From NCBI GenBank assembly GCA_965204375.1, contig OZ241986.1, positions 5,952,001 through 6,016,000 on the forward strand: a stretch of 64,000 nucleotides of DNA, read 5' to 3'. A model generated the notes under the pieces. It saw only the letters and a program-made list of their open reading frames with translations. It searched no databases and was not told the DNA's origin. Both the position numbers and the translations under genes were made by a program. The DNA is from Candidatus Latescibacterota bacterium (GTDB lineage Bacteria > Latescibacterota > UBA2968). This document shows, in pieces, positions 2,507-16,879 of the stretch. Position 1 is the stretch's first letter. The number at the start of each line of letters is the position of its first letter.

Positions 2507-3134
2507 TAAAGCCGAGAAAGCCGAAAAAATTGCCGAGATTTTGAACGAGTTGTATCCCGATCCCGAAGGATCGCTGAGACACGGGAGTGCCTATACCTTG
2601 CTGGTCGCCGTGTTGTTGTCGGCACAGTGTACCGATGTGCGGGTCAATCAGGTGACGCCCGTTCTGTTTGCAAGGGCAGATACGCCAGAGAAAATGATTG
2701 CGCTGTCGGTTGAAGAAATCGAAGGCATTATCCGTCCGTGTGGGTTGGCGCCTCGCAAAGCGCAGGCGATTTTCGATTTGTCCCGTATTTTGCTGGATGA
2801 ACACGATGGCGAGGTGCCCCAATCTTATGAGGGTTTGGAAGCATTGCCCGGCGTGGGACACAAGACGGCGTCGGTGGTGATGGCTCAGGCTTTTGGCGTG
2901 CCAGCATTTCCCGTGGATACGCATATTCACCGTCTCGCCTATCGATGGGGATTGTCCAATGGCAAAAATGTGGTGCAGACCGAGCGCGATTTGAAACGCA
3001 TTTTCCCCGCGGAAATTTGGAATAAGTTGCATTTGCAGATTATTTTTTTTGGACGAGAATATTGCCCTGCGAGAGGGCATGACCCCCATCAATGCCGCAT
3101 TTGTAGTGTGTATGGACGCAGGAGTTTGCTTTGA
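2490..3134 (+). CDS. nth: Endonuclease III
   Basis: LLVAVLLSAQCTD, HhH LPGVGHKTA, VDTH, C-terminal Cys cluster; start probably TTG 2490 after GGAGG (ORF track 2469). Confidence 0.93.
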   Translation: MKKRFSKAEKAEKIAEILNELYPDPEGSLRHGSAYTLLVAVLLSAQCTDVRVNQVTPVLFARADTPEKMIALSVEEIEGIIRPCGLAPRKAQAIFDLSRILLDEHDGEVPQSYEGLEALPGVGHKTASVVMAQAFGVPAFPVDTHIHRLAYRWGLSNGKNVVQTERDLKRIFPAEIWNKLHLQIIFFGREYCPARGHDPHQCRICSVYGRRSLL

Positions 3135-3150
3135 AAGATTGGAGGTGGAA

Positions 3151-4290
3151 GTGAAGATTCGAGCGATTGCGATTTCGGTTTTTGAGTTGCCTGCCAATAC
3201 GGGTCGATTTCGGATGGAACAAACCGGTCAGGGTGCCCGCAAGCGATGGGCAAAGCGGGGTACGGGTAAGTCGGCAGAGCATATACACGTTTTGCATGTG
3301 AAGACCGACGAAGACATCGAAGGGGTATGTACGGTGGGGGATGCGCGGTACACGACGATGCGCTCTGAAGATCTGGAGCAATTGCGGTTGCTGGCGATTG
3401 GCGAAGATCCATTTGATCGGGAGCGGCTCGCGCAAAAATTACACAAAGCGACACGCGGCATGTTCACGCGACCCGGATGGTTTGGTGCTTTTGACAATTG
3501 TTTGTGGGATATTGCTGGGAAGGTTGCGGGGCTGCCCATTCACGGTCTGATTGGTCGGGCGCGGTCTCGTTGTGCGGCTTATTACAATTTTAGAAGTGGC
3601 TCAAAAGAAGAGGCTGTAGCCGATGCAACAAAGGCAGTGGAACGGGGTTTTTTAGCTGTAAAAGATCACTTTGGGGGTACGGCAGATGAAAATATCGCGT
3701 GTTTTCACGCTGTGCGCGATGCGGTGGGAGGTGATGTCGATATTTTGCACGATGCCGCGGGATGTGATTATACGTTGCAAGATGCAATTCGGGTGGGTAA
3801 GACTCTAGAGGCGTTGCGGTTTGGATGGTTTGAAGAGCCTTTGGCAGATCGAGATCAAAAGAACTTGCAGCGTTTGTGCGATGCGCTGGATATTCCCATT
3901 TTGGCGCCTGAGACTTTGATGCACGATGTAGATTTGAGCGCGCAATGGATTATTTCCGGGGCAACGGATGCCCTGCGCGCCAATGCGCGGCTGGGGACAA
4001 CTCCGACGTTGAAGTTGGCACATTTGGCGGAGATGCACGGTGCAAATATTGAATTTAATGGACCGGGTGGGTTATTTGGGCTGGTGCATGCACATCTGGT
4101 TTGTGCCATATCGAATACGAGTTATTATGAGTTTTTCCCCGGAGGCTCCCGGGATGTGCGCGGTCGTGAGATTGGGTTGCTCAATCCACCATTGCCCGAG
4201 AATGGTCATATTACACCGCCCAATAGTCCCGGATGGGGTGCCGAATGGGATTGGGAATTTTTTGAGAAGAAGCGGATTGGGGAGTTGTGA
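3151..4290 (+). CDS. Mandelate racemase/muconate lactonizing (enolase superfamily) enzyme
   Basis: DNCLWDIAGK, KDH, WFEEP motifs; GTG at 3151 after GGAGG. Confidence 0.85.
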   Translation: MKIRAIAISVFELPANTGRFRMEQTGQGARKRWAKRGTGKSAEHIHVLHVKTDEDIEGVCTVGDARYTTMRSEDLEQLRLLAIGEDPFDRERLAQKLHKATRGMFTRPGWFGAFDNCLWDIAGKVAGLPIHGLIGRARSRCAAYYNFRSGSKEEAVADATKAVERGFLAVKDHFGGTADENIACFHAVRDAVGGDVDILHDAAGCDYTLQDAIRVGKTLEALRFGWFEEPLADRDQKNLQRLCDALDIPILAPETLMHDVDLSAQWIISGATDALRANARLGTTPTLKLAHLAEMHGANIEFNGPGGLFGLVHAHLVCAISNTSYYEFFPGGSRDVRGREIGLLNPPLPENGHITPPNSPGWGAEWDWEFFEKKRIGEL

Positions 4291-4368
4291 TCCGCAGATG
4301 GACGCAGATGAATGCAGATAAAAAAGAGGGGCTGGGAGTTGGTTGGGTGGACTGACAACTGACAACTA
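4291..4368. repeat. Degenerate intergenic repeats (3x ~10-bp GCAGAT unit; 7-bp ACTGACA tandem)
   Basis: CGCAGATG-GACGCAGATG-AATGCAGATA, then ACTGACAACTGACAACT; the right part has an inverted homologue at 14760-14815. Confidence 0.6.
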
Positions 4369-4380
4369 AAAGGAGATTTT

Positions 4381-5625
4381 ATGGCTTCTGATAAACCAAA
4401 TATTGTTCTGATTTTGTCCGATGATTTGGGATATGAATGCCTGGGGTGTTATGGGGGTGAATCGTATCAAACTCCTGTGCTGGATGGGTTGAGCAAGGAG
4501 GGAATGCGTTTTGACCATGCGTATGTCCTGCCGTTGTGTACGCCGACGCGGTTACAGTTGATGACGGGTAAATACAATTTTCGCAACTGGAGAGCCTTTG
4601 GCGTGATGGACCTCCAGGAGCGCACTTTTGGGCATTTGATGAAGGAGGCTGGGTACAAAACGTGTATTTCGGGTAAATGGCAAATGTATAGCTATAATCC
4701 GCCGGATTTTGAGCCTGAGTGGCGCGGTAAGGGGCAATTGGCGGAAGATTCGGGTTTTGACGAGTATTGTTTGTGGCATACGGAACATACCGAGGATAAG
4801 GGGTCGCGGTATGCCGATCCGGTGATTCAGCAAAATGGAGCGTATTTGGAGGATACAGAGGGCAAGTACGGTCCGGATATTTTTACGGCTTATATTTGTG
4901 ATTATATCGAGCGACACAAGGATGAGCCGTTTTTTGTTTATTATCCCATGGCGCTGACACACGGCCCGTTTGAACCCACGCCCCATAGTGAAATATGGTC
5001 GGAAAACCGACACGATAGCGATGTGAAGTATTTTAAAGATATGGTTGAGTATATGGATGTGGTGATTGGGCGGATTGTGGATAAATTGGATGAACTCGGT
5101 TTGAGAGAGAATACCTTGCTTTTGTTTATTGGCGATAATGGTTCGCCCCGTCAGGTGACTTCTATTATTAATGGCCGCGAGTTCCAGGGAGGAAAGGGTC
5201 TTTCGACTGATGCGGGTACGCGGGTGCCATTTGTCGCGAGTTGGCCGGGTACGATTCCACCGGGGTCTGTGTGTGATGATTTGATCGATTGTAGCGATTT
5301 TGTGCCGTTGATGATGGATATGGCTGGCACGCCTTTGCCCGAGGACGATGTGTTTGATGGGGTGTCATTTTTGCCGCAGTTAAAGGGCGAGGCGGGAACG
5401 CCGCGCGAGTGGATTTTTGCCCATCACGATCCCCTGCCCGGATGGGGTAAGGAGGGGTACTATTTAAAGCGATGGGCACAGGATAAACGCTGGAAGCTCT
5501 ACGATACGGGCGATTTGTACGATGTTGCAGCAGATGAGTTGGAAGAACATCCAATTGTCGATGGAGGCGCAGAAGCAGAGGTAGCGCGACAAAAATTACA
5601 GCCTGTGCTGGATCGGATGAAGTAA
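4381..5625 (+). CDS. Arylsulfatase-family sulfatase (Cys type)
   Basis: KPNIVLILSDDLG, CTPTR formylglycine motif, GKW, GDNG. Confidence 0.92.
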   Translation: MASDKPNIVLILSDDLGYECLGCYGGESYQTPVLDGLSKEGMRFDHAYVLPLCTPTRLQLMTGKYNFRNWRAFGVMDLQERTFGHLMKEAGYKTCISGKWQMYSYNPPDFEPEWRGKGQLAEDSGFDEYCLWHTEHTEDKGSRYADPVIQQNGAYLEDTEGKYGPDIFTAYICDYIERHKDEPFFVYYPMALTHGPFEPTPHSEIWSENRHDSDVKYFKDMVEYMDVVIGRIVDKLDELGLRENTLLLFIGDNGSPRQVTSIINGREFQGGKGLSTDAGTRVPFVASWPGTIPPGSVCDDLIDCSDFVPLMMDMAGTPLPEDDVFDGVSFLPQLKGEAGTPREWIFAHHDPLPGWGKEGYYLKRWAQDKRWKLYDTGDLYDVAADELEEHPIVDGGAEAEVARQKLQPVLDRMK

Positions 5626-5653
5626 GCGCGTTTGTTTCGCCGATATTTCCGAC

Positions 5654-5687
5654 TTGACACATTTTGTGTACAGCGATAAAATTACAC
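5654..5687 (+). promoter_or_regulatory. Sigma70-type promoter of the ATPase-helicase operon with overlapping inverted repeats
   Basis: TTGACA(5654)-N17-TAAAAT(5677); ACACA-TTT-TGTGT and GTGTA…TACAC dyads overlap it. Confidence 0.75.
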
Positions 5688-5729
5688 GCGATCGGAAATC
5701 ACTTACATCCAAAACAGAAGGTAATCAAA

Positions 5730-6587
5730 ATGGTAGATCGAGAAGAATTTCTCGAGCAAATGCAAGAGAAATTGACAGACGTGGTCAGGCCCTATCAACA
5801 GCAGCAAAACCGCCGTCAGCGAATGGCCGATTTTGTGAAACAGTGCATCCGCAGTGCCGGGCGAAATGACTTTTTTCAACTCGACGAATTGCTCAAGTCC
5901 AAAATGGCGCGGGATGTGGAAGAAGAAGTGGGACTAAAGGACGGTGCAGAGTTTTTAGATCAATTGCGTACTTATGCGGATGAACAGGTGGAGCGATACC
6001 GAATCCAATTTATAGAAGATCTGACGACATTGGCGCGTGAAGCGGAACTTCCAATAGAGGTCGATTTTCCGCGTATTGAGGTGCTCAAAGGCATAGAGGG
6101 AGATGTTGACTTTGCACAGCGGAAAACTGTGATCAATAAAAAAATCCTGAAATCCGTTGATCCAAAGCGCATCATTACTGCTCTCCGCAGGGTAAAGCAG
6201 CAACTCTATGACCGCCCTTATGATCCACAGGTGTTTATTGATGAGTTGTATAACGCATACATGGAAATTCTAAAAAAAGAGGCGCAAGAAATAGGCCACC
6301 CGGTCCCCATGCAGCAGTTGTACCTGGAATATGTGCTATCTCTTCAGAGCCGGACATTTTTTCAGGACATGGATAAGGGAAAATTTCGAGGGTATAGTCT
6401 GGATCAATTTGCGGTTGATTTATGGCGTTATTTTCAAGCCGGTATTGGGGGCACTTCAGATGGCTATGCCGTGCAGCTAAGACCGGGGCGGAACAATGCG
6501 CTATGGCTTATTGACAGCGATGGAGAGCGGCGACAGATTACGCGCATTTCTTTTTTGAACAAGCGCGAGAAAGGGCCTGAAAAATGA
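5730..6587 (+). CDS. Hypothetical protein, first gene of the candidate defence operon
   Basis: ATG 5730 after GAAGGT; helical N-terminus, no recognised motif; its stop overlaps the next start (ATGA). Confidence 0.8.
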   Translation: MVDREEFLEQMQEKLTDVVRPYQQQQNRRQRMADFVKQCIRSAGRNDFFQLDELLKSKMARDVEEEVGLKDGAEFLDQLRTYADEQVERYRIQFIEDLTTLAREAELPIEVDFPRIEVLKGIEGDVDFAQRKTVINKKILKSVDPKRIITALRRVKQQLYDRPYDPQVFIDELYNAYMEILKKEAQEIGHPVPMQQLYLEYVLSLQSRTFFQDMDKGKFRGYSLDQFAVDLWRYFQAGIGGTSDGYAVQLRPGRNNALWLIDSDGERRQITRISFLNKREKGPEK

Positions 6588-7879
6588 CACTGCAAGCTCT
6601 GGAGCAACTCAAACCCTTTGAGGCGCGGGCCATTATTGAAGATCTCCGCAAAGGCAGCGTGCCGATTGATTACGTGCCCTTTTTTAGTGTGGGGCGTCAG
6701 AACTGGTTAAAATTTATCGAAGAAGACCTGGATAACTACATCGCCGAAGGGGGCGCGAAGGTTCGCTTTATCAACGGAGACTACGGCGATGGCAAAACGC
6801 ATTTTATGTCGGTTATCAGGCACCTCGCGCTTGAAAAAAAGTTCGCCGTGTCTTTTGTGGTGCTCACGCGCGAAGTGCCCATACACAAATTTGAGATTGT
6901 CTATCAAACCATCGCGCGCCAGCTCTGCGGTTCTTTTGAAGGCGTAGGTATCCGCCAATTCGTGGATGATTGGGTCGAAAATCTGAAAGCCGATCTGACA
7001 GATGATGCACCTCTCGAAGAACAACTCTTCTCTGTGGGGGAAAGCCTGCGTGCGCTTTCTGGGATGGATCTCAATTTTGCCAATGCGCTGATCGGGTTGG
7101 CAGACAATCGCCTCAGACCGCTCGAAGCAGGTGAAGACGAAGAGGCGCGTGCATATCAGCGGGAAATTCTCTACCAGTGGTTTGAAGGCGTGCGGGTGAG
7201 CAAGCGAGAACTCAAACCGTTCCAGATTTTTGAAGCCCTCGATAAGACCAACAGCAAGCGATTTCTGACCTCGCTCATTGTCTTTTTGCGGCATCTCAAC
7301 TACAAGGGCCTCGTGCTGTTGATGGACGAATTGGAAACCGTAATCGCCCAATCGACAACCATTCGCAATGCGTCTTATGAAAATGTCCGCTTGCTGATCG
7401 ACAATGCCGAGCAAGCGTCTTATTTGCACATTTTTATGTCCATTATTCCCGATGTGACGCTCTCGGAAAAGGGATTTAAGTCCTACGACGCGCTGTGGAG
7501 TCGCGTGCGTTCTATTGGCGAAAACAAACGGCTGAATTACCGCAGCGTGTTGGTTGATCTTCACAGAACGCCTTTGGAAACCAGCGAACTGGTCAATCTG
7601 GGGCTTTGCCTGAAACGCATTCACGAACTGTCCTACCGATGGGATGCCCAGGAACAGGTCGGCGAAGATTTGTTAAACAAAATGTGTGTCGCTCAAAAGC
7701 GCATGGGGCTTTTAAGCGAGGTCCGGCTCTATATCAAGCAAGTCATTCGCATACTCGACATGGCCGAGCAAGGTGTGCCGCCAGACGAAGATATGGATAT
7801 GGCCGAGCAACTCGTGGTCAGCCAGCGAGAAATGGAGCAAGAAAAAGTTGAACAACTTCAACCGACGTGGGATGCCTGA
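6584..7879 (+). CDS. DUF2791/BrxD-like P-loop ATPase (copy 1)
   Basis: N-terminal 'IIEDLRKGSVP…VGR', Walker A GDYGDGKT, Walker B VLLMDE, 'SYDALWSR' family motif. Confidence 0.85.
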   Translation: MTLQALEQLKPFEARAIIEDLRKGSVPIDYVPFFSVGRQNWLKFIEEDLDNYIAEGGAKVRFINGDYGDGKTHFMSVIRHLALEKKFAVSFVVLTREVPIHKFEIVYQTIARQLCGSFEGVGIRQFVDDWVENLKADLTDDAPLEEQLFSVGESLRALSGMDLNFANALIGLADNRLRPLEAGEDEEARAYQREILYQWFEGVRVSKRELKPFQIFEALDKTNSKRFLTSLIVFLRHLNYKGLVLLMDELETVIAQSTTIRNASYENVRLLIDNAEQASYLHIFMSIIPDVTLSEKGFKSYDALWSRVRSIGENKRLNYRSVLVDLHRTPLETSELVNLGLCLKRIHELSYRWDAQEQVGEDLLNKMCVAQKRMGLLSEVRLYIKQVIRILDMAEQGVPPDEDMDMAEQLVVSQREMEQEKVEQLQPTWDA

Positions 7880-9096
7880 TGACCTCTCTCCAAACGCGAT
7901 CCAATGAAACGGCATTCCACCTTCGGCGTGCCATAGAACGCCTGCGAGAAGGACTTTTTGATCCTGTTGCGGTTCGTCTGCTCACAGCCCGCGAAAGCCA
8001 TCTAAAAAAAATCATTGACCGCGATTTTCAACAACTCGGCCAGAATAAGCCAACCCATCTGTGCATCTGTGGGGCTTATGGGCAGGGCAAATCGCACAGT
8101 TTGAATTACATCCACGATCTGGCCCTGCGCGAAAATTTTGTAACCACCTTCATCAATTTAGATCCTCGAGAGATTCCCTTTCACGATATGCGACGGGTCT
8201 ATCAAGCACTCATTGCCCATCTAAAATTTCCAGATGTGGACACCGCATTGGCAGCGCGATGGCGCGCCTGGGCAAGTGACCTATCACGCGAAGACTTTGA
8301 GGACCGAGTCGCGCCGCTTTTGCAGCGGGAAATGCCGCACCTGTTCCGATCTGTCCTGACCGCGATGGCTCAAAAAACAATCTCCCTTTCAAAGCGACAG
8401 CGCGGCACTAAAAAACACGCGGCATACCGCCCGCGCGAATTTCCCTACCTGCTTTCCCGCGCACTTTCAGGTGATGTGGTGCCAGTCTATCGCTTGCGCC
8501 ACGCGCTCAAATACCGACAGGTTGATTTTTACAATGATACATCGCTCACCTGTAAAGGTGCAGAACCCTACCTGCAAGTAATTCGCGGATTGGGGCGGCT
8601 TTTTCAATTGATGGGCTACCGCGGATGGGTGTTGCTGTTTGATGAGGGAGAATCGATCTCTCAAGTGCGCGTGACCAGCCGCAGTCGCAGTTATCAGAAT
8701 TTGGATCAGATGCTTTTCTCCGCCGTTCCATCCGCATCTATTTATCCGGTTTTTGCTTTTACAGACGACTTTTTTCAAAAAGTGGATGAAGAAGAATACG
8801 ACCGGGTGCGAATCCGCAATGAAGAGGAAATTCCGTATTTTGAGAAAGATTACGCCAGTGCATGGACAGATATGAAACGCTATCTACTTCACGATTTGTC
8901 TGCAAAAGAGTGGCACGCGTTGATCGAGAAGTTGATGCACTTACATGCTAAAGCCTATCAATGGCAGCCACTCAAGGCCGCTGTGCGGCGCGAAATGACC
9001 CGGCGATTATCTCGCATGCAAGGGCAGGAGACGCGCTATCGACTCAAAGGTCTGGTCGATGAATTAGACCTCGCCCATCAAGCTCAAATTTCGTAA
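7879..9096 (+). CDS. DUF2791/BrxD-like P-loop ATPase (copy 2)
   Basis: 'AIERLREG', Walker A GAYGQGKS, Walker B VLLFDE; TGATG coupling to the upstream gene. Confidence 0.82.
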   Translation: MTSLQTRSNETAFHLRRAIERLREGLFDPVAVRLLTARESHLKKIIDRDFQQLGQNKPTHLCICGAYGQGKSHSLNYIHDLALRENFVTTFINLDPREIPFHDMRRVYQALIAHLKFPDVDTALAARWRAWASDLSREDFEDRVAPLLQREMPHLFRSVLTAMAQKTISLSKRQRGTKKHAAYRPREFPYLLSRALSGDVVPVYRLRHALKYRQVDFYNDTSLTCKGAEPYLQVIRGLGRLFQLMGYRGWVLLFDEGESISQVRVTSRSRSYQNLDQMLFSAVPSASIYPVFAFTDDFFQKVDEEEYDRVRIRNEEEIPYFEKDYASAWTDMKRYLLHDLSAKEWHALIEKLMHLHAKAYQWQPLKAAVRREMTRRLSRMQGQETRYRLKGLVDELDLAHQAQIS

Positions 9097-9101
9097 CCTC
9101 C

Positions 9102-12100
9102 ATGTCTGAATCCATCTCTCCACTGCGCCAATTGCCCAATGCCTATCGCGCATTTTACGGCTCTTTTCCCTATCTCTATCCCTTTCAAAAGCAAAGTATT
9201 GAACCGATCTTACAAGGCAAAGACCTGATCTTGCAATCGGCGACCGGCTCTGGCAAAACCGAAGCCGTGCTGGCGCCGTGCATTGAGCGCATTATCCAGT
9301 CGGGGCGGCAACACACCGCGCTTTATGTGGTTCCCACACGGGCCTTGGCCGTAGATTTAGAACGCCGTCTCACACCTGTATTGAAGGATAGACTCGGCCT
9401 GCAAATGGGGATACGCACGGGCGATTTCAAACGGGCGGGCGGGGCACTGCCCGATCTGTTATTGACGACGCCCGAATCTTTTGACGTGCTCTTGGGCAGT
9501 TCAAATGCGGATTTGAAATATTTTGTCCAGCGCATTCGCACGGTCATTATCGATGAAGCACATCCCCTCATTCACCAGTATCGCGGGCGGCAATTGGCCT
9601 ATTTGCTCACGCGCTTGCAACGCCGCATCGCCGCTCCCGTGCAAAAGATCGCCCTTTCCGCCACGCTCGCTGATGTCGAGGAGGTTGCCCGTTTTTTTGG
9701 CTTTCGACCCGATACCGTCTTTCTGACTGAATCTGTCCAACGCGATATCGTCCCCCATATTGTCCATCTCAAAAACGACGCAGTCGAACTCGTAGCACTC
9801 TTAAACGATCTCTACGAAACCTACGAGTATCGCAAAATTTTGTTGTTTGCCAACAGCCGAGGATGTTGTGATCGGCTGTTTTCTCTTTTGTCGCGTCAAG
9901 GCGCGTTTCAAGGTGTTACCGACCTCCACTACTCCAACCTGAAGGCCAGCACGCGTCGCGCCGTAGAATACCGATTTCGCCGCCGCGAACACGCCCTTTG
10001 CATTGCCACGAGCACACTCGAACTCGGCATTGATATCGGCGATGTGGATAGCGTTTTGCTCTACGAACCGCCGGATGCCACATCGGCTTTTCTCCAGCGC
10101 ATTGGTCGCTCCAACAGGCGGGAGGGGCGCACGCACTTTTGGGGGATATGCCGAGGCGCAGATGCACAGACGCAATTGCTCAGATTTTTGGGCATGCTGA
10201 ACATGGCGCGCCGCGGCCATATTGAAACACCACAACCCAAAACCCTGCCCAGCGTTCTCGTCCAGCAAATGCTCTCCTGCTTGTACGAAAAGAAAACCAT
10301 CACGCAGTCTGCTCTTTGCGATTTGTTTCCCGATCAGCGGGACATGATCGCCCATTTGTTTGAGGCGATGGCGCGGCAACAGTGGTTGCGAAAAGATCGC
10401 GTCACGGGTCTTTTTAAGGGGGGACGACGCTATCGCGATTATTTTTTAGAACGGCGTATTTGGAGCAATTTCCCCGAGACCGAAGAGGATTATGTGCTGG
10501 AATTTGCGGGCGAAGCCATTGCAGATTTGCCCAAATTCATCGTTCGACAATTGGAACTCGATGACCGCGTGCAACTGACGGGCAAGCGATTGCGCGTTTT
10601 GAATATTGAAACGGGTGAACGCAAAAGAGTGATTGCCCAACCGACAGATCGAATAGACGAGAAAGAGCTTTTCTGGCTGGGTGCGGGATTTCGGGTGTCT
10701 TATGAAGTCGCACAATCGGTTCGAGATATTCTTCATAAGGATACCGAAAAAAGCGCGTTGGGCCTGTTTTCTCGCACGCGAAAATTGCTCAACGATGCAG
10801 CGAGAAGTCTGAAGCGCACGGTTGTTTTGCACAATAGCATTGAAGTTGAACGCAGTTTGGGCGGCCTGTATCGCTATCGCACCTATCTCGGTTCTGTGGG
10901 CAATCTCGTGTTACAGTGGATCATTGAACGCGAGTATGGCGATCTGGAAGATTTTACGGTGACTTCAGATAGTATCGGTATAGACTGTTCTCATTGGGTC
11001 AATTTTCAAGCACTCCCTCTCCCGCAAGATCGCGAAGACTTTGCCCACTGGGTGAAAGAACACCTGGAATCCCTGTACAGCCTGTTTCCTCTCAATGCCT
11101 TTTGTGAGGTATTGCCCCGCGCCCTGTTGGTCGAAGAAATCGCGGATTTTCTTTTTGATCCGCGCGTTGCCAAAACCTTCCAGCACTATCTAAAACGTCC
11201 TTCGGAAATCGCGTCTGGTGATCCCGCTCTGCTCGCGGAAACTATTTACGAGATCGAATCTCACGCGGTTTTTCTCGATACCAAAATACAAACAGATCTG
11301 CTCACCTGGGAAAGACAGCGGTGGCACGCGGACCGACACACAGCATCCGACATGCACTATCGCCCGAGGTCGCTTACGGGCACGATGGTGGGCGCGTATT
11401 TTTTGCACCATCAATGTGAACGCTGGTTGGCCCTCAATTTTGTACCCGCTGAACAAACCCAATGGCGAGATAGCGATACAGACTTGAACGCGCTTCGGAT
11501 GGAACGGGGAAATCTGCACGAAAAACAGGTGCTGAATCGCATTCGGGAGGTCAATGTTTTGCACGAAGTGGCGGCGTTTGACCACATGGGTAGGCGACTT
11601 TCCCTGAAATCGCGATTTGAAACCACCCTCGCGCTGTTAAGAGACACAGACGCAATTTCCGATCAATCGACATTTTTGTTTCAAGCCGTCCTGATCCAGC
11701 CATCTGTTTTGGGGCAACAAGACCACTGGATGAGCCATGTAAATGGCATCGGCATTCCCGATCTCATCCGCATTTCAAAAGCAGACCGCGGCGTTGTGTT
11801 GCAAGTGGGCGACATCAAGAACAGCCGCAGGCCCTACGAGACACAGAAGTGGCAGGTTGCATTTTACGCCTATATACTCGACCGCGTGATCGCGCAACAC
11901 GAGTTGCCCATGCGCGTGGCGTCTTCGGGGTTTCTGATGCTGCGTTCCAAAGGGGTAGACGGATCACCCGAACCACATGTTTTTGATCTCGAACCCTACC
12001 TGACGGCCCTTCAGATGATGTTTCGAAATATGAACAGCGTATTGCAACGCGCCCCAGCCCGCGCGCGTTATCACCTCCAAACCCACTGTACGACGTGCCC

Positions 12101-14768
12101 CAATTTTGAGGCGTGTTATCGGGATGCACTTCAAGAGGATATTCAGCTTGTGCCGCATTTGAGCGCGGGTGCGCTGCAAAAGTTTCGCCAATGCGATCTC
12201 AAAACCATCGCATCTGCCCATGCGTGGTTTGAATCTGTTTCCGTTTCAGGGGACGATCTTTTCAGCCCACACCAGAAAACACAACTTTCGGGCCAACTCG
12301 CCGCGCTACAAGCAAATAAAATCGGTCTGAAGGACGAACAAACGCGGTCTTATCCGAGTAATTTATCCACAGCCATTTTCATACACATCGCAGAAGACCC
12401 CGTTTCGGGACACCCACGCGCGATAGGTTGGCGCGCCCTGCAGGGGAAAACGGTGGTCGAGAGCCAGATCCTCGAGGTCGCATCAGAGGGCGAGTTGCCA
12501 GAGGCGTTGCGGGATTTCACGGCGCGTTTTTTGTCCGTCTGGAATCGAGGTATCAAAGACGGACGAGGGCCACATGTTTTCCACTTTGGAACGCGCTGCT
12601 GGCAGACTTTTGAGGATTGGTGCGAGGGATCAGAAGATCTGTCTTTTTTGTTTTTGCCCCATCGCAACCACCGCACAGATTTGCAAAAGCTGATTGCTTC
12701 GCAATTCGATTTTCCCATGCCGGGCAATCCCACGCTTTTCGCACTCAACCGCCTGTTGGGTCTCAATGCCGAACTCAATGAGCCGCAAAGTCTGTTTCAT
12801 TTTGATGATGGCGAAGGGATACAAGAAGAAAAAATGGTCGAATATCTCAACACCGTATTGCGCTTGCAAATATCGCTGTGGCAATGGGTGTCTTCGCACT
12901 TGACGAGCGCGTGGGAAAAGGGCGAATGGGATCCCGCGATGGATGATATGCAGAGCACACAAACGGCCTATTTGAATTTTCTGTCCGAGGAGCGGCGGCT
13001 CCGCGAAGAAGATGTGCTCGCCGTACAAGCCCTTCCCCTGTCTGAGCGCGTGGAACGCTTTCGCGCCCTGGGCCCCATCCGTTTTCAAAAAACGACGCTC
13101 GACGACGAAGGCCGTTTTCTCTATGAATTTCAGATTGTACCAGAAACCGGCCTCTCAAAATTCCGCGCAGGCGATTTTCTCAAACTCGCGCCCATTGGCC
13201 TGTCAGATGTGCAAAACGGTTTGCCCGTCATCCTTACAGATCACAGCTCAGAGCACTTGTCGGTGCAATCTCGGCAGGGGCGATTGGCCTTAAATCCGAG
13301 GCTTATGTATTCTCTGGAAGAGGATTTGACCGATTGGAATGGCCCCCGGTTGGTTCACGCTGTTCAGACCGTTTTTTCGGAAGACCGCGTGCATCCCCTG
13401 TCACAACTTCTGTCCGGCAACTGGCAGGCGGCGCGAGAACCCGATGCGTTGAGATGGGTGCAAAATTGGATGCGCGGATTTGGCGCGATAGCAGGACTCA
13501 ATGAGACGCAACAACAGGCACTATCATTGCCTTTTACACATCGCTTGAGCCTGATTGAAGGGCCGCCTGGAACGGGCAAAACGCACTTGTTGGGTTGGAT
13601 ACTCATTGCATTGATCCTGCATGCTCAAGAAGAGAGCAGGCCGTTGCGGATTGCCGTCAGCGCGTTGACGCATCAGGCCATTGACCAGGTGCTCGCCAAA
13701 GTGGTCGCGCTCGTGGAAGAACACGGCTTGCAAGGCTTTCCCGCACGATGCTTCAAATTGGGACGGTGGGATTTGACAGAGCACGGGGTAGAACCTTTAG
13801 AGGATGTAGAAACACTCGCAGAGTCTTCTTATGCGATTTTGGGTGCCACGGGATTTGGCCTCTATCAGCTTTTTGAAGGTCACAAGGGAACTTTCCCACA
13901 GGTGTTTGATTGGGTTGTATTCGATGAGGCATCCCAGATGCTCATTCCCCAGGCCCTGTTGAGCTTGCTCTATGGCAAGGGGAATTTCCTCTTTGCCGGA
14001 GACACCAAACAATTGCCACCCATTGTCCTGTCAGATCGCAAGGAGGAAAATGGCACACACCATTCCGCGCTGTCTTATCTGCTCAGTCAATACGACTCTG
14101 CCCACCGCGTCCGCCTGGATCGCACGTATCGAATGAACGAAGACCTGTGCTCTTTTCCCAGTCACATGTGGTATGATGGCGAACTTCGCGCAGACGCTGG
14201 CAATGCGCTAAACCGCCTCGCGCTGCAATACACCGACCACCGCGACCTGTTAGATCGCGTTCTCGACCCGGCAAAACCGGTCGTACTCCTCATCGTAGAT
14301 CACCGCGGTCACCACCAGAAATCCGATGAAGAAATCGAGATCACAACCCAACTCGCCCATCGGTTGATCGCCGAACACGGTTTGGATGCCGATCAAATCG
14401 CCCTGATTTCTCCCCACCGCGCACAAAATAACGCCACCGCTGACAGCCTTGCAAAGCGACTGGGCGATGCCAATGCCAAATTGCCCTTGATCGATACGGT
14501 AGAACGCGTTCAGGGCGCGGAACGCGATGTCATTTTGTATGCTTTCACCACATCTGATCCCGACTATGTCACCAGTCCATTTTTGAACAATCCCAATCGC
14601 TTTAATGTGGCGATCACACGCGCCAGACAAAAGTTGATTGTGGTGGGCAGTCAGGCATTTTTCTCTGCCATTCCACAATCAGAGGACGCATTAAAAGCCA
14701 ACCGATGTTTCAAGGCGTTTTACGAATTTTGTCGAGAACGAGAGAGTTTGTTTTTTTGGAGTGGTTAG
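9102..14768 (+). CDS. 1888-aa fusion: Lhr-like DEAH SF2 helicase + Fe-S PD-(D/E)xK (RecB/Cas4/TM0106-like) nuclease + degenerate RNase H-like domain + Dna2/UPF1-like SF1 helicase
   Basis: SATGSGKT, DEAH, SAT, TLELGIDIG, QRIGRS; HQCER…IPDL…DIK…QVAFY…CTTCPNFEAC; GPPGTGKT, DEASQ, GDTKQLPP, YRMN, QGAERD, NVAITRAR. Confidence 0.88.
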   Translation: MSESISPLRQLPNAYRAFYGSFPYLYPFQKQSIEPILQGKDLILQSATGSGKTEAVLAPCIERIIQSGRQHTALYVVPTRALAVDLERRLTPVLKDRLGLQMGIRTGDFKRAGGALPDLLLTTPESFDVLLGSSNADLKYFVQRIRTVIIDEAHPLIHQYRGRQLAYLLTRLQRRIAAPVQKIALSATLADVEEVARFFGFRPDTVFLTESVQRDIVPHIVHLKNDAVELVALLNDLYETYEYRKILLFANSRGCCDRLFSLLSRQGAFQGVTDLHYSNLKASTRRAVEYRFRRREHALCIATSTLELGIDIGDVDSVLLYEPPDATSAFLQRIGRSNRREGRTHFWGICRGADAQTQLLRFLGMLNMARRGHIETPQPKTLPSVLVQQMLSCLYEKKTITQSALCDLFPDQRDMIAHLFEAMARQQWLRKDRVTGLFKGGRRYRDYFLERRIWSNFPETEEDYVLEFAGEAIADLPKFIVRQLELDDRVQLTGKRLRVLNIETGERKRVIAQPTDRIDEKELFWLGAGFRVSYEVAQSVRDILHKDTEKSALGLFSRTRKLLNDAARSLKRTVVLHNSIEVERSLGGLYRYRTYLGSVGNLVLQWIIEREYGDLEDFTVTSDSIGIDCSHWVNFQALPLPQDREDFAHWVKEHLESLYSLFPLNAFCEVLPRALLVEEIADFLFDPRVAKTFQHYLKRPSEIASGDPALLAETIYEIESHAVFLDTKIQTDLLTWERQRWHADRHTASDMHYRPRSLTGTMVGAYFLHHQCERWLALNFVPAEQTQWRDSDTDLNALRMERGNLHEKQVLNRIREVNVLHEVAAFDHMGRRLSLKSRFETTLALLRDTDAISDQSTFLFQAVLIQPSVLGQQDHWMSHVNGIGIPDLIRISKADRGVVLQVGDIKNSRRPYETQKWQVAFYAYILDRVIAQHELPMRVASSGFLMLRSKGVDGSPEPHVFDLEPYLTALQMMFRNMNSVLQRAPARARYHLQTHCTTCPNFEACYRDALQEDIQLVPHLSAGALQKFRQCDLKTIASAHAWFESVSVSGDDLFSPHQKTQLSGQLAALQANKIGLKDEQTRSYPSNLSTAIFIHIAEDPVSGHPRAIGWRALQGKTVVESQILEVASEGELPEALRDFTARFLSVWNRGIKDGRGPHVFHFGTRCWQTFEDWCEGSEDLSFLFLPHRNHRTDLQKLIASQFDFPMPGNPTLFALNRLLGLNAELNEPQSLFHFDDGEGIQEEKMVEYLNTVLRLQISLWQWVSSHLTSAWEKGEWDPAMDDMQSTQTAYLNFLSEERRLREEDVLAVQALPLSERVERFRALGPIRFQKTTLDDEGRFLYEFQIVPETGLSKFRAGDFLKLAPIGLSDVQNGLPVILTDHSSEHLSVQSRQGRLALNPRLMYSLEEDLTDWNGPRLVHAVQTVFSEDRVHPLSQLLSGNWQAAREPDALRWVQNWMRGFGAIAGLNETQQQALSLPFTHRLSLIEGPPGTGKTHLLGWILIALILHAQEESRPLRIAVSALTHQAIDQVLAKVVALVEEHGLQGFPARCFKLGRWDLTEHGVEPLEDVETLAESSYAILGATGFGLYQLFEGHKGTFPQVFDWVVFDEASQMLIPQALLSLLYGKGNFLFAGDTKQLPPIVLSDRKEENGTHHSALSYLLSQYDSAHRVRLDRTYRMNEDLCSFPSHMWYDGELRADAGNALNRLALQYTDHRDLLDRVLDPAKPVVLLIVDHRGHHQKSDEEIEITTQLAHRLIAEHGLDADQIALISPHRAQNNATADSLAKRLGDANAKLPLIDTVERVQGAERDVILYAFTTSDPDYVTSPFLNNPNRFNVAITRARQKLIVVGSQAFFSAIPQSEDALKANRCFKAFYEFCRERESLFFWSG

Positions 14769-14815
14769 TGGTTAGTCCGCCCAACTCCCAGTCTCAAGTA
14801 TTCAGCCCCTTCTTT
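14760..14815. repeat. Intergenic repeat, inverted homologue of 4326-4368
   Basis: AGTGGTTAGTGGTTAGTCCGCCCAACTCCCAG…CAGCCCCT versus the reverse complement of 4326-4368, AGTTGTCAGTTGTCAGTCCACCCAACCAACTCCCAGCCCCT. Confidence 0.55.
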
Positions 14816-14951
14816 GCCTTTCTTTATGTCTTCGTGTCTTTGTGTGAAGCCCTCGCACCCCGCACTTCCCCTGCACATTTTGTTCTCTCCGAACTACCTA
14901 TTGTGAATAGATCGTTCAACACATGTCCGCTTTGATATGATGTAAATTTTT

Positions 14952-16587: not shown

Positions 16588-16656
16588 TATTGCGATTGTA
16601 AAACGATGTCCATGACGGTATATTATGACATCAGGAGTATCGAAAAGGGGAAAACC

Positions 16657-16842
16657 ATGCAGATTCCAACACCAGGTGAAAAGCTGGCAGAGTATGACGC
16701 CCGCTTGTCCCGCATTGAAGGCATTGTTGAGCAAATGAACGTCCGCTTGACAGGGCTTGAAAGCGGTATCCGTTGGGTTATCGGAATCCAGATTACTACC
16801 TTGCTCAGTCTCGGAACGCTCATTCTGTTCAAACTTGGCTAA
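16657..16842 (+). CDS. Small coiled-coil protein with C-terminal TM helix (DUF1640/hemolysin XhlA-like)
   Basis: Heptads RLSRIEGIVEQMNVRLTGLE then WVIGIQITTLLSLG; AGGGG RBS; possible TTGTAA-N17-TATATT promoter at 16596-16624. Confidence 0.6.
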   Translation: MQIPTPGEKLAEYDARLSRIEGIVEQMNVRLTGLESGIRWVIGIQITTLLSLGTLILFKLG

Positions 16843-16879
16843 TAAACTCATCTTGAGCAATGACAAACGAATCGTAAAA

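Follow-up and report, generated by a model that had tools for sequence, protein, structure and literature searches.

Analysis of a 64-kb stretch of DNA from a Candidatus Latescibacterota bacterium (contig OZ241986.1, positions 5,952,001 to 6,016,000; hereafter the window, whose numbering is used unless a locus or contig is named) identified a block of four genes, here called g1 to g4. This block is probably an undescribed cassette related to Shango and type 2 BREX, which would defend the cell against phages or plasmids without DNA modification and in which ATPases would control a two-motor helicase-nuclease. Judged by sequence, the four genes are a conserved, horizontally mobile unit with intact catalytic motifs. 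The cassette presents the ATPase-helicase pairing of Shango and BREX type 2 with an effector that can be read from the sequence, a predicted iron-sulfur nuclease between two motors, and reveals a new conserved partner protein, g1, for that pairing. Both Shango and the type 2 BREX pair of BrxD and BrxHI protect or are part of protective systems; to our knowledge, the mechanism of neither has been explained.

The four genes are located on the forward strand and are tightly coupled. The open reading frames (ORFs) extend from 5664 or 5730 to 6587, from 6584 to 7879, from 7867 or 7879 to 9096 and from 9102 to 14768. The g1/g2 junction is an ATGA overlap (6584-6587), the g2/g3 junction is a TGATG overlap with g3 starting at the ATG at 7879 (the GTG at 7867 being an alternative start), and 5 bp lie between g3 and g4 (9097-9101). 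The most likely start codon of g1 is the ATG at 5730, preceded by AAGG, rather than the TTG at 5664. The putative promoter, TTGACA-17-TAAAAT, is the sole site within the region to match 11 of the 12 consensus positions. Promoter-like sites were not in excess (7 observed and 8.7 in shuffled sequences), so it is the position and quality of this site that argue for it. The upstream flank contains an enolase-superfamily gene and a sulfatase gene, the downstream flank comM and a penicillin amidase gene; the GC skew, 0.25-0.31 in these flanks, drops within the block to values of about -0.15 to 0.1, which are foreign to them. These results agree with the preliminary description of this DNA, which had recorded one consensus promoter and four co-oriented, tightly coupled genes between a sulfatase and comM, lacking the strand composition of their neighbours.

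Both g2 and g3 belong to the Pfam family BrxC_BrxD (PF10923), for which they scored 186.7 bits (E 9e-55) and 86.4 bits (E 2.5e-24), respectively, above the gathering threshold of 22.2; the duplicated DUF2791/BrxD-like ATPase proposed earlier was thus recovered. The only PADLOC models matched by the two proteins were BrxD and SngB. For g2 the E values were 1.7e-42 with BrxD and 6.3e-33 with SngB, for g3 the SngB model gave 1.8e-11, and in both proteins BrxD outscored SngB. With the NCBIfam BrxD equivalog NF033438, g2 (142.9 bits) and g3 (66.8 bits) remained under the cut-off of 350. The two proteins share 23% identity over their full length, as would be expected of anciently diverged paralogues. 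The Walker A and Walker B motifs were conserved in 51 g2 and 41 g3 sequences.

The product of g4 combines several enzymatic modules. Pfam identified DEAD and Helicase_C domains at the N-terminus and AAA_11 (E 9e-23) and AAA_12 (E 8.8e-30) at the C-terminus. The N-terminal helicase, of superfamily 2 (SF2), matched the PADLOC models of BrxHI (E 3.4e-87, model positions 22-688 of 698) and SngC (E 6e-72, g4 residues 22-686 on model positions 22-709 of 720), g4 being about 1200 residues longer, as well as the NCBIfam ligase-associated Lhr-type DEXH helicase (E 1e-59); HamB models matched the helicase core (E 1.6e-16). The C-terminal helicase, of superfamily 1 (SF1), occupies residues 1466-1851, and further matches were obtained with DpdJ (E 2.7e-48), MkoA (E 3.3e-45) and a 'PLuB' helicase model.

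Between these two motors, alignment of 21 orthologues showed that C83, C307, C310, C316 and D198 of the middle part are invariant and that (D/E)IK and QxxxY are nearly so. We take this pattern of invariant cysteines and PD-(D/E)XK residues to be the signature of iron-sulfur nucleases of the Cas4/RecB/Dna2 type. Family models gave scores under their cut-offs, by little for Pfam PDDEXK_1 (PF12705; E 1.9e-4, 21.9 bits, cut-off 22) and by more for the NCBIfam Cas4 model (E 1.4e-3, 18.5 bits, cut-off 65), and phmmer found no match among PDB chain sequences at E <= 1. The AlphaFold model of residues 690-1450 (predicted local distance difference test, pLDDT, 80) had Dna2 (5ean_A) as its top fold match (E 4.6e-5, 763 alignment columns, template modelling score 0.16 over this multi-domain model), and Cas4, MGME1, Exo5, RecE and AdnAB (7sjr_A) were further nuclease matches. 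The motifs are those of a predicted Cas4/RecB-family iron-sulfur nuclease, in which cluster binding is likewise a prediction. The barrel preceding the SF1 motor matched the folds of Ighmbp2 (4b3f), Upf1 and ZNFX1. A weak match to exonuclease I (2qxf; E 1.8e-3, probability 0.92) was obtained for the central domain, with strands at model positions 384-436 and 466-472.

From the models, motifs and folds of its segments, g4 would join, in one chain of 1888 residues, an SF2 helicase of the BrxHI kind to a nuclease-helicase resembling Dna2; the giant double helicase with a nuclease of its own, as it had been described, is therefore retained. The middle of g4 diverges much faster between phyla (27-43% identity) than g1 and g2 (56-69%). 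By their predicted motifs, the active sites are kept in both ATPases and in all three catalytic modules of g4.

For g1, no family was assigned by Pfam, PADLOC or NCBIfam, which is consistent with its earlier designation as unrecognisable, and no consistent Pfam match was found among 73 members of its family. Each of its 551 close homologues is annotated as 'hypothetical', and a search of the ESM Atlas also returned 'hypothetical' clusters only; a profile search gave 390 representative clusters. The AlphaFold2 model built from a 73-row alignment (pLDDT 95.5) predicts three parts: a long helical hairpin (residues 2-104), a small alpha/beta domain and, at residues 164-281, a C-terminal domain. 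Foldseek gave zero matches between the whole model and the PDB at E <= 1e-3, and a wide fold search was swamped by generic helical hairpins. Residues 164-281 superposed best on the winged helix of ORC1 (8s0e_A; Z 6.7, root-mean-square deviation 3.5, 80 residues aligned), followed by many ORC1/Cdc6-complex entries (Z 5-6.3), TubR (Z 5.3) and ESCRT-II (Z 4.7); Z values of this size (4.7-6.7) fall in the range which the aligner itself calls common. The profile of the g1 family aligned to an annotated SngA-type TerB protein with an hhalign probability of 0.5%, and g1 is, as judged from this comparison, unrelated to SngA/TerB. The predicted complex of g1 and g2 scored 0.00 in two runs made without controls, a value which speaks neither way.

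Related loci, 61 in number, were found in Latescibacterota and in many Desulfobacterota (Electrothrix, Desulfobacter, Syntrophobacteraceae, Desulfatiglandales). By tblastn, g2 follows g1 in 59 of them, and in the other two the contig ends first. In 32 loci g4 is located directly after g3, with an intact g4 ORF of at least 1889 aa in 23 of these; contig ends cut 18 loci, g3 is missing in two (L022 and L033), and in eight no g4 occurs within at least 1.9 kb downstream. Where g1-g2-g3 (the trio) is unlinked to g4, four of five genomes carry g4 elsewhere, at 48-66% identity, and the fifth is a metagenome-assembled genome of 2.2 Mb. One helicase consists of the BrxHI-like part only (L012, 725 aa). 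The synteny check suggested in the preliminary description thus found the four-gene order conserved in both phyla.

In one of the 61 loci, L016 of Electrothrix, g4 follows g3 after a 7-kb insert (L016:10218-17421); an islet between g3 and g4 was noted also in L013 and L015. The islet of L016 contains a BrnT toxin, a nucleotidyltransferase/HEPN pair, an Eco57I-type methylase, a GmrSD-like gene and a RelA/SpoT-domain gene. In these relatives among the cable bacteria, the operon seems to be a landing site for defence genes.

Genome G168, which carries locus L021, has two full-length g4 orthologues (C2:3281-9253 and C1:397160-403195), both 53% identical and one of them located about 50 kb from the trio. 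A decaying copy was found at L060:10001-19115, with g1 split by a frameshift and g4 in four tblastn pieces. Locus L009, a very short (3.9-kb), low-coverage contig binned as Promethearchaeota, contains g1-g2-g3 at 54-65% identity to those of the window, a level similar to that of the Desulfobacterota copies; a binning error is more likely than an archaeal copy.

Distant relatives of g1 in other Latescibacterota (E 1e-15 to 1e-23) keep the same gene order. In genomes G053, G056, G059 and G038, a g1-like gene (266-270 aa, profile E 1e-15 to 1e-16) is followed by a BrxD-like pair of 322-327 aa and 418-422 aa, the longer with GAGKS and DEIE motifs, and by a ZorD/DpdE-like SNF2 helicase of roughly 715 aa. 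The homologous first gene, the ATPase pair and their order are shared with the cassette of the window. The motor differs, being SNF2 there and Lhr-like plus Dna2-like here, and in the G053 copy (L074) the Walker motifs are degenerate in the shorter, first ATPase (GSKA; DN) and intact in the longer, whereas both ATPases are intact here. In G103, BrxD-like proteins of 590 and 445 aa precede a BrxHI-like helicase of 745 aa. Since distant g1 relatives head a trio with different helicases, the trio can be regarded as the conserved core and the motor as exchangeable.

The cassette forms an insert whose presence is optional. With a 14.2-kb query spanning the locus, each of the 21 genomes of the genus was recovered; five of them (G000, which is the genome of the window, G088, G089, G081 and G074) contain the cassette. 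Eleven (G072, G073, G076, G077, G078, G079, G080, G083, G085, G086 and G090) have an empty site, where the sulfatase end (window 3000-5624) and comM (from 14872) are 10-36 bp apart. In the remaining five the gap is about 525 bp (G084) or about 185 bp (G091), or the region is divergent or fragmented (G075, G082, G087). Across the phylum, profile search found a g1 relative in 22 of 168 genomes. The borders of the insert, about 9.25 kb in length, were placed by aligning three empty sites with both junctions. A 10-bp sequence, CACATTTTGT, occurs three times in the window (0.27 expected), and two of these copies lie on the forward strand at the two junctions. It is present as a single copy at the empty sites (L079-L081) and at both ends also in L001 and L004. 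No recombinase, integrase or transposase gene was found within the 9.25-kb insert in the ORF list or by Pfam, and an element borne by its own integrase or transposase was accordingly discarded.

Contigs of sequencing runs X5 (coral) and X19 (sponge) join position 5624 to 14898 or 14901 through 36-39 letters that correspond to the empty-site sequence, and the cassette itself was found on further contigs of X5 and of X4, its paired DNA run. Occupied and empty alleles therefore coexist in one community. The clean presence/absence polymorphism, together with the conserved synteny, strongly supports the accessory nature of the cassette. Its location between sulfatase and comM just marks where the insertion occurs in this genus and is no argument against defence. 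In this sponge- and coral-associated genus of Latescibacterota the polymorphism offers natural isogenic-like comparisons. The coordinates of all features are given in Table 1.

Table 1. Features of the cassette and its borders in the window.
Feature	Position	Strand	Basis
Insert, about 9.25 kb, carrying the whole cassette and nothing else	about 5625-14870	+	empty-site alignment
Four-gene block g1-g4	5730-14768	+	ORF list
Sigma-70-like promoter TTGACA-17-TAAAAT (predicted)	5654-5682	+	11/12 consensus positions; consensus match alone
10-bp direct repeat CACATTTTGT, left copy, overlapping the -35 region	5658-5667	+	junction alignment
10-bp direct repeat CACATTTTGT, right copy	14874-14883	+	junction alignment
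g1, 285 aa, no known family	5730-6587	+	Pfam/PADLOC/NCBIfam scans and AlphaFold2 model
g2, predicted BrxD/SngB-like ORC/Cdc6-type AAA+ ATPase, 431 aa, Walker A GDGKT, Walker B DELE	6584-7879	+	PF10923 and PADLOC
g3, predicted BrxD-like ATPase, 405 aa from ATG 7879 (405-409 aa), Walker A GQGKS, Walker B FDEGE	7879-9096	+	PF10923 and PADLOC
g4, predicted helicase-nuclease-helicase fusion, 1888 aa	9102-14768	+	Pfam, PADLOC, NCBIfam, alignment, AlphaFold
g4 residues 22-694, BrxHI/SngC-type (Lhr-like) SF2 helicase, motif I GSGKT and DEAH	9165-11183	+	PADLOC/NCBIfam
g4 residues about 755-1010, predicted Cas4/Dna2-type PD-(D/E)XK nuclease, four cysteines C...CX2CX5C	11364-12131	+	alignment, fold
g4 residues about 1073-1269, central alpha/beta domain, possibly RNase H-like	12318-12908	+	weak fold match
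g4 residues 1326-1851, beta-barrel and Upf1/Dna2-like SF1 helicase, GPPGTGKT, DEASQ, VAITRAR	13077-14654	+	Pfam, fold

The cassette was compared with named systems. In scans of the four proteins with Pfam, PADLOC and NCBIfam, no TerB, methylase, PglX, PglZ or BrxC was found, as the preliminary description had stated for TerB, PglX, PglZ and methylase, and its claim that the block stands outside the named types agrees with the lack of a fit in PADLOC-DB 2.0, NCBIfam 20 or Pfam. Shango reportedly goes back to Millman 2022. PMC10250203 presents it as a TerB protein, an ATPase and a helicase that give 10-100-fold protection. Like Shango, the cassette is a stand-alone operon without a methylase, with a small first gene, a BrxD-type ATPase and a BrxHI/SngC-type helicase. 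Shango differs in the TerB domain of SngA, to which g1 has no likeness by Pfam, PADLOC or hhalign, in its single ATPase SngB in place of two paralogues, and in SngC, a DEAD/DEAH helicase of about 700 aa to which g4 adds about 1200 residues of nuclease and SF1 helicase.

In the passages of PMC12839542 that were searched, BrxD and BrxHI are described as a type 2 BREX-specific dyad, BrxD is classed with the ORC/Cdc6 AAA+ proteins and helicase loading or activation is proposed; the cassette, Shango, Dna2 and Cas4 go unmentioned in those passages. Of the PADLOC models, BrxD scored best with g2 and g3 and BrxHI with the N-terminal part of g4, and the loader logic would be the same as that proposed here. 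The cassette differs from the dyad by the addition of g1, by the doubled ATPase and by the fused nuclease-helicase, and g2 lies far under the BrxD cut-off. The type 2 core proteins PglX, PglZ and BrxC, and also PglW, are absent from the inserted segment, to which the search for PglX and PglW was limited. PF10923 matched g2 and g3 only in the whole genome, which therefore contains no BrxC. The single PglZ-domain ORF of the genome (535 aa, E 1.3e-16; G000:C1:6071826-6072401) is located about 114 kb from the cassette and about 56 kb past the end of the window.

As in Dna2, the single chain of g4 would have an iron-sulfur PD-(D/E)XK nuclease ahead of its SF1B helicase, a similarity of architecture and fold; there was no sequence-level match (phmmer against PDB chains, E <= 1), and g4 adds an SF2 Lhr-like motor and dedicated ATPases. 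Two motors and a nuclease are the design of bacterial end-resection machines, and AddAB, AdnAB and RecBCD resemble g4 in this way, a likeness of working and not of membership. According to PMC12278908, SngC, BrxHI, DruE and DpdJ form one SF2 clade marked by antiphage immunity. Hachiman (HamAB), as treated in the same source, shares with the cassette a helicase sensor, a nuclease effector and the lack of DNA modification; HamA is absent here, the helicases fall into different clades and only their core is shared (HamB, E 1.6e-16). No description of the cassette was found in the literature covered, which excludes subscription journals and supplements. The 9.25-kb optional insert, the synteny across two phyla and the SNF2-linked distant relatives of g1 are new here.

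If the cassette is a defence system, its action could be as follows. The g1 protein, with its winged-helix-like domain and helical hairpin, would form a hetero-oligomer with the ATPases g2 and g3. This complex would recognise a feature of invader DNA, for which free ends, replication intermediates and protein-DNA complexes are candidates, and with ATP would load or license g4. The g4 protein would then travel along the DNA with two motors, presumably of opposite polarity, Lhr-like SF2 motors moving 3'-5' and Dna2/Upf1-like SF1B motors 5'-3', while its iron-sulfur Cas4/Dna2-type nuclease would cut the displaced strands, in a degradation of DNA resembling that by RecBCD or AddAB.

Several lines of evidence suggest a role in defence. 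The ATPases match only BrxD and SngB, and the N-terminus of g4 matches BrxHI and SngC. The cassette is accessory, being present in few genomes of the genus and phylum, with both alleles in the same runs, a foreign GC skew and a direct repeat at its ends. A functional linkage of the four genes is indicated by the g1-g2 adjacency, by g4 following g3 and by the presence of g4 elsewhere when unlinked. The association of g1 and the ATPase pair with either an SNF2 or a plain BrxHI-like helicase is a modularity typical of defence, and the conserved Walker A/B, nuclease and cysteine motifs point to intact catalysis. Finally, some neighbouring genes are defence, toxin-antitoxin or mobile genes.

Neighbours were taken as up to two ORFs on each side of 59 of the 61 loci (L004 and L016 being excluded), 144 ORFs in all, of which 14 were scanned separately and 130, from 53 loci, are considered here. 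Pfam identified five PIN domains, two BrnT, HicB, UPF0175, two Fic, DruA, two AAA_14/DUF4143 and IS66, and an integrase was also found among the neighbouring genes. In PADLOC (E <= 1e-8), specific matches were obtained for four of the 130 (SoFic twice, PDC-S01 twice). Nine other neighbours with PADLOC matches look generic and were not counted as defence: among them are rRNA/tRNA methyltransferases (matched by mad2), an ABC ATPase (mad3), a histidine kinase (PDC-M43B) and a cysteine desulfurase beside fdhD (SspA/DndA). From the Pfam and PADLOC counts, the association with defence islands is real but modest.

Other observations weigh against a defence function. Metabolic or housekeeping genes make up the greater part of the neighbours, and with four specific PADLOC matches among 130 the enrichment is modest; as regards the defence-island enrichment that the preliminary description had suggested scoring, some defence, toxin-antitoxin and mobile neighbours were found and a strong enrichment was not. 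No g2 relative was found in 50,697 phage records. Relatives of g2 on plasmids are all below 30% identity, and those inspected were Shango or annotated BrxD; a canonical Shango on a Bradyrhizobium plasmid was among the closest (27% identity). The identity of g1 and g2 between phyla, 56-69%, is unusually high for defence genes, no self/non-self discriminator is evident in the cassette, and Lhr and Dna2 act in repair in other contexts. The winged-helix-like nature of the g1 C-terminus, suggested by a match of middling strength (Z 5-6.7), is a lead and not a result. The methylation-independent anti-phage or anti-plasmid system of the preliminary description thus stands as regards its accessory nature and its place outside named systems; its defence function is something we infer, the enrichment among neighbours being modest.

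The same observations could be due to an accessory machine for DNA repair or recombination, in which the ATPases would load an Lhr plus Dna2-like end-resection enzyme at broken or stalled forks in the service of genome maintenance. The likeness of the g4 N-terminus to ligase-associated Lhr-type helicases (E 1e-59), Dna2 as the best fold match of the g4 middle (E 4.6e-5), the high conservation across phyla, the mostly housekeeping neighbours, the umuD/imuB-like gene that follows the cassette in L061 and the lack of a methylase or other self-marker would all fit such a role. We consider it rather unlikely: a patchy distribution (5 of 21 genomes in the genus, 22 of 168 in the phylum), with precise empty sites, both alleles in one community and a different genomic position in each lineage, argues against genome maintenance, as do ATPases that match defence-system models only, the exchange of the helicase partner for a ZorD/DpdE-like SNF2 protein in relatives and the defence and toxin-antitoxin genes inserted within the Electrothrix operon. 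In an abortive infection, the triggered g4 nuclease would degrade the host chromosome too, or instead, and the infected cell would die. Hachiman, according to PMC12278908, offers a parallel case of abortive action after DNA-damage sensing, and its HamAB helicase-nuclease logic, the HamB matches of the g4 helicase core (E 1.6e-16) and the lack of a self/non-self marker are compatible with such an outcome. The homology of g4 to HamA/HamB is limited to the helicase core and the sequence offers nothing to separate abortive action from direct degradation of invader DNA, so that we regard it as improbable here.

That the cassette is what remains of BREX type 2 or Shango, or was split from one of them, with other genes elsewhere, is hardly credible. 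BrxD and BrxHI are indeed its best PADLOC matches and one PglZ-domain ORF exists in the genome. This ORF is about 114 kb away and outside the window, however, PF10923 is confined to g2 and g3, so that BrxC is missing, g2 reaches 142.9 bits against a BrxD cut-off of 350, g1 is by its profile unrelated to SngA/TerB, and exactly these four genes were inserted and are conserved across two phyla.

Within the defence reading, we tentatively raise a further idea, doubtful at present, that g1, g2 and g3 are a bacterial immune counterpart of an origin-recognition or helicase-loading complex. In this view a heteromeric pair of AAA+ proteins of the ORC/Cdc6 type, together with a separate winged-helix subunit, would recognise invader DNA and license interchangeable motor-effectors (a bipolar helicase-nuclease, Lhr plus Dna2-like, here and an SNF2-Mrr type in the sister cassettes). 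The occurrence of one conserved trio with different helicases suggests that the ATPases are a loader or sensor that can be transferred, and makes the role of BrxD-type ATPases directly testable. If the idea is true, the trio would bring to prokaryotic immunity a new sensor class, as a 'loader module' that is portable.

Parts of the cassette were present in three metatranscriptome libraries, as contigs that may derive from DNA. The depth of the cassette in X5 resembled that in X4, the DNA run paired with it. For X19, one contig of 2.1 kb covering g1-g2 (window 5524-7659) from a 91%-identical strain had a word depth of 39, compared with 5-9 in the flanks and 0-10 over g3-g4; parts of the cassette left uncovered in X19 and X20 carry no meaning. 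The depth over g1-g2 is a weak hint of transcription and not proof, which contigs cannot give.

Two intergenic stretches outside the insert, between the enolase-like gene and the sulfatase gene (4286-4383) and 3' of comM (16643-16845), have copies of 73-96% identity at dozens of sites in G000 and its relatives. By sequence they look like dispersed repeats of the repetitive extragenic palindromic (REP) or miniature inverted-repeat transposable element (MITE) type.

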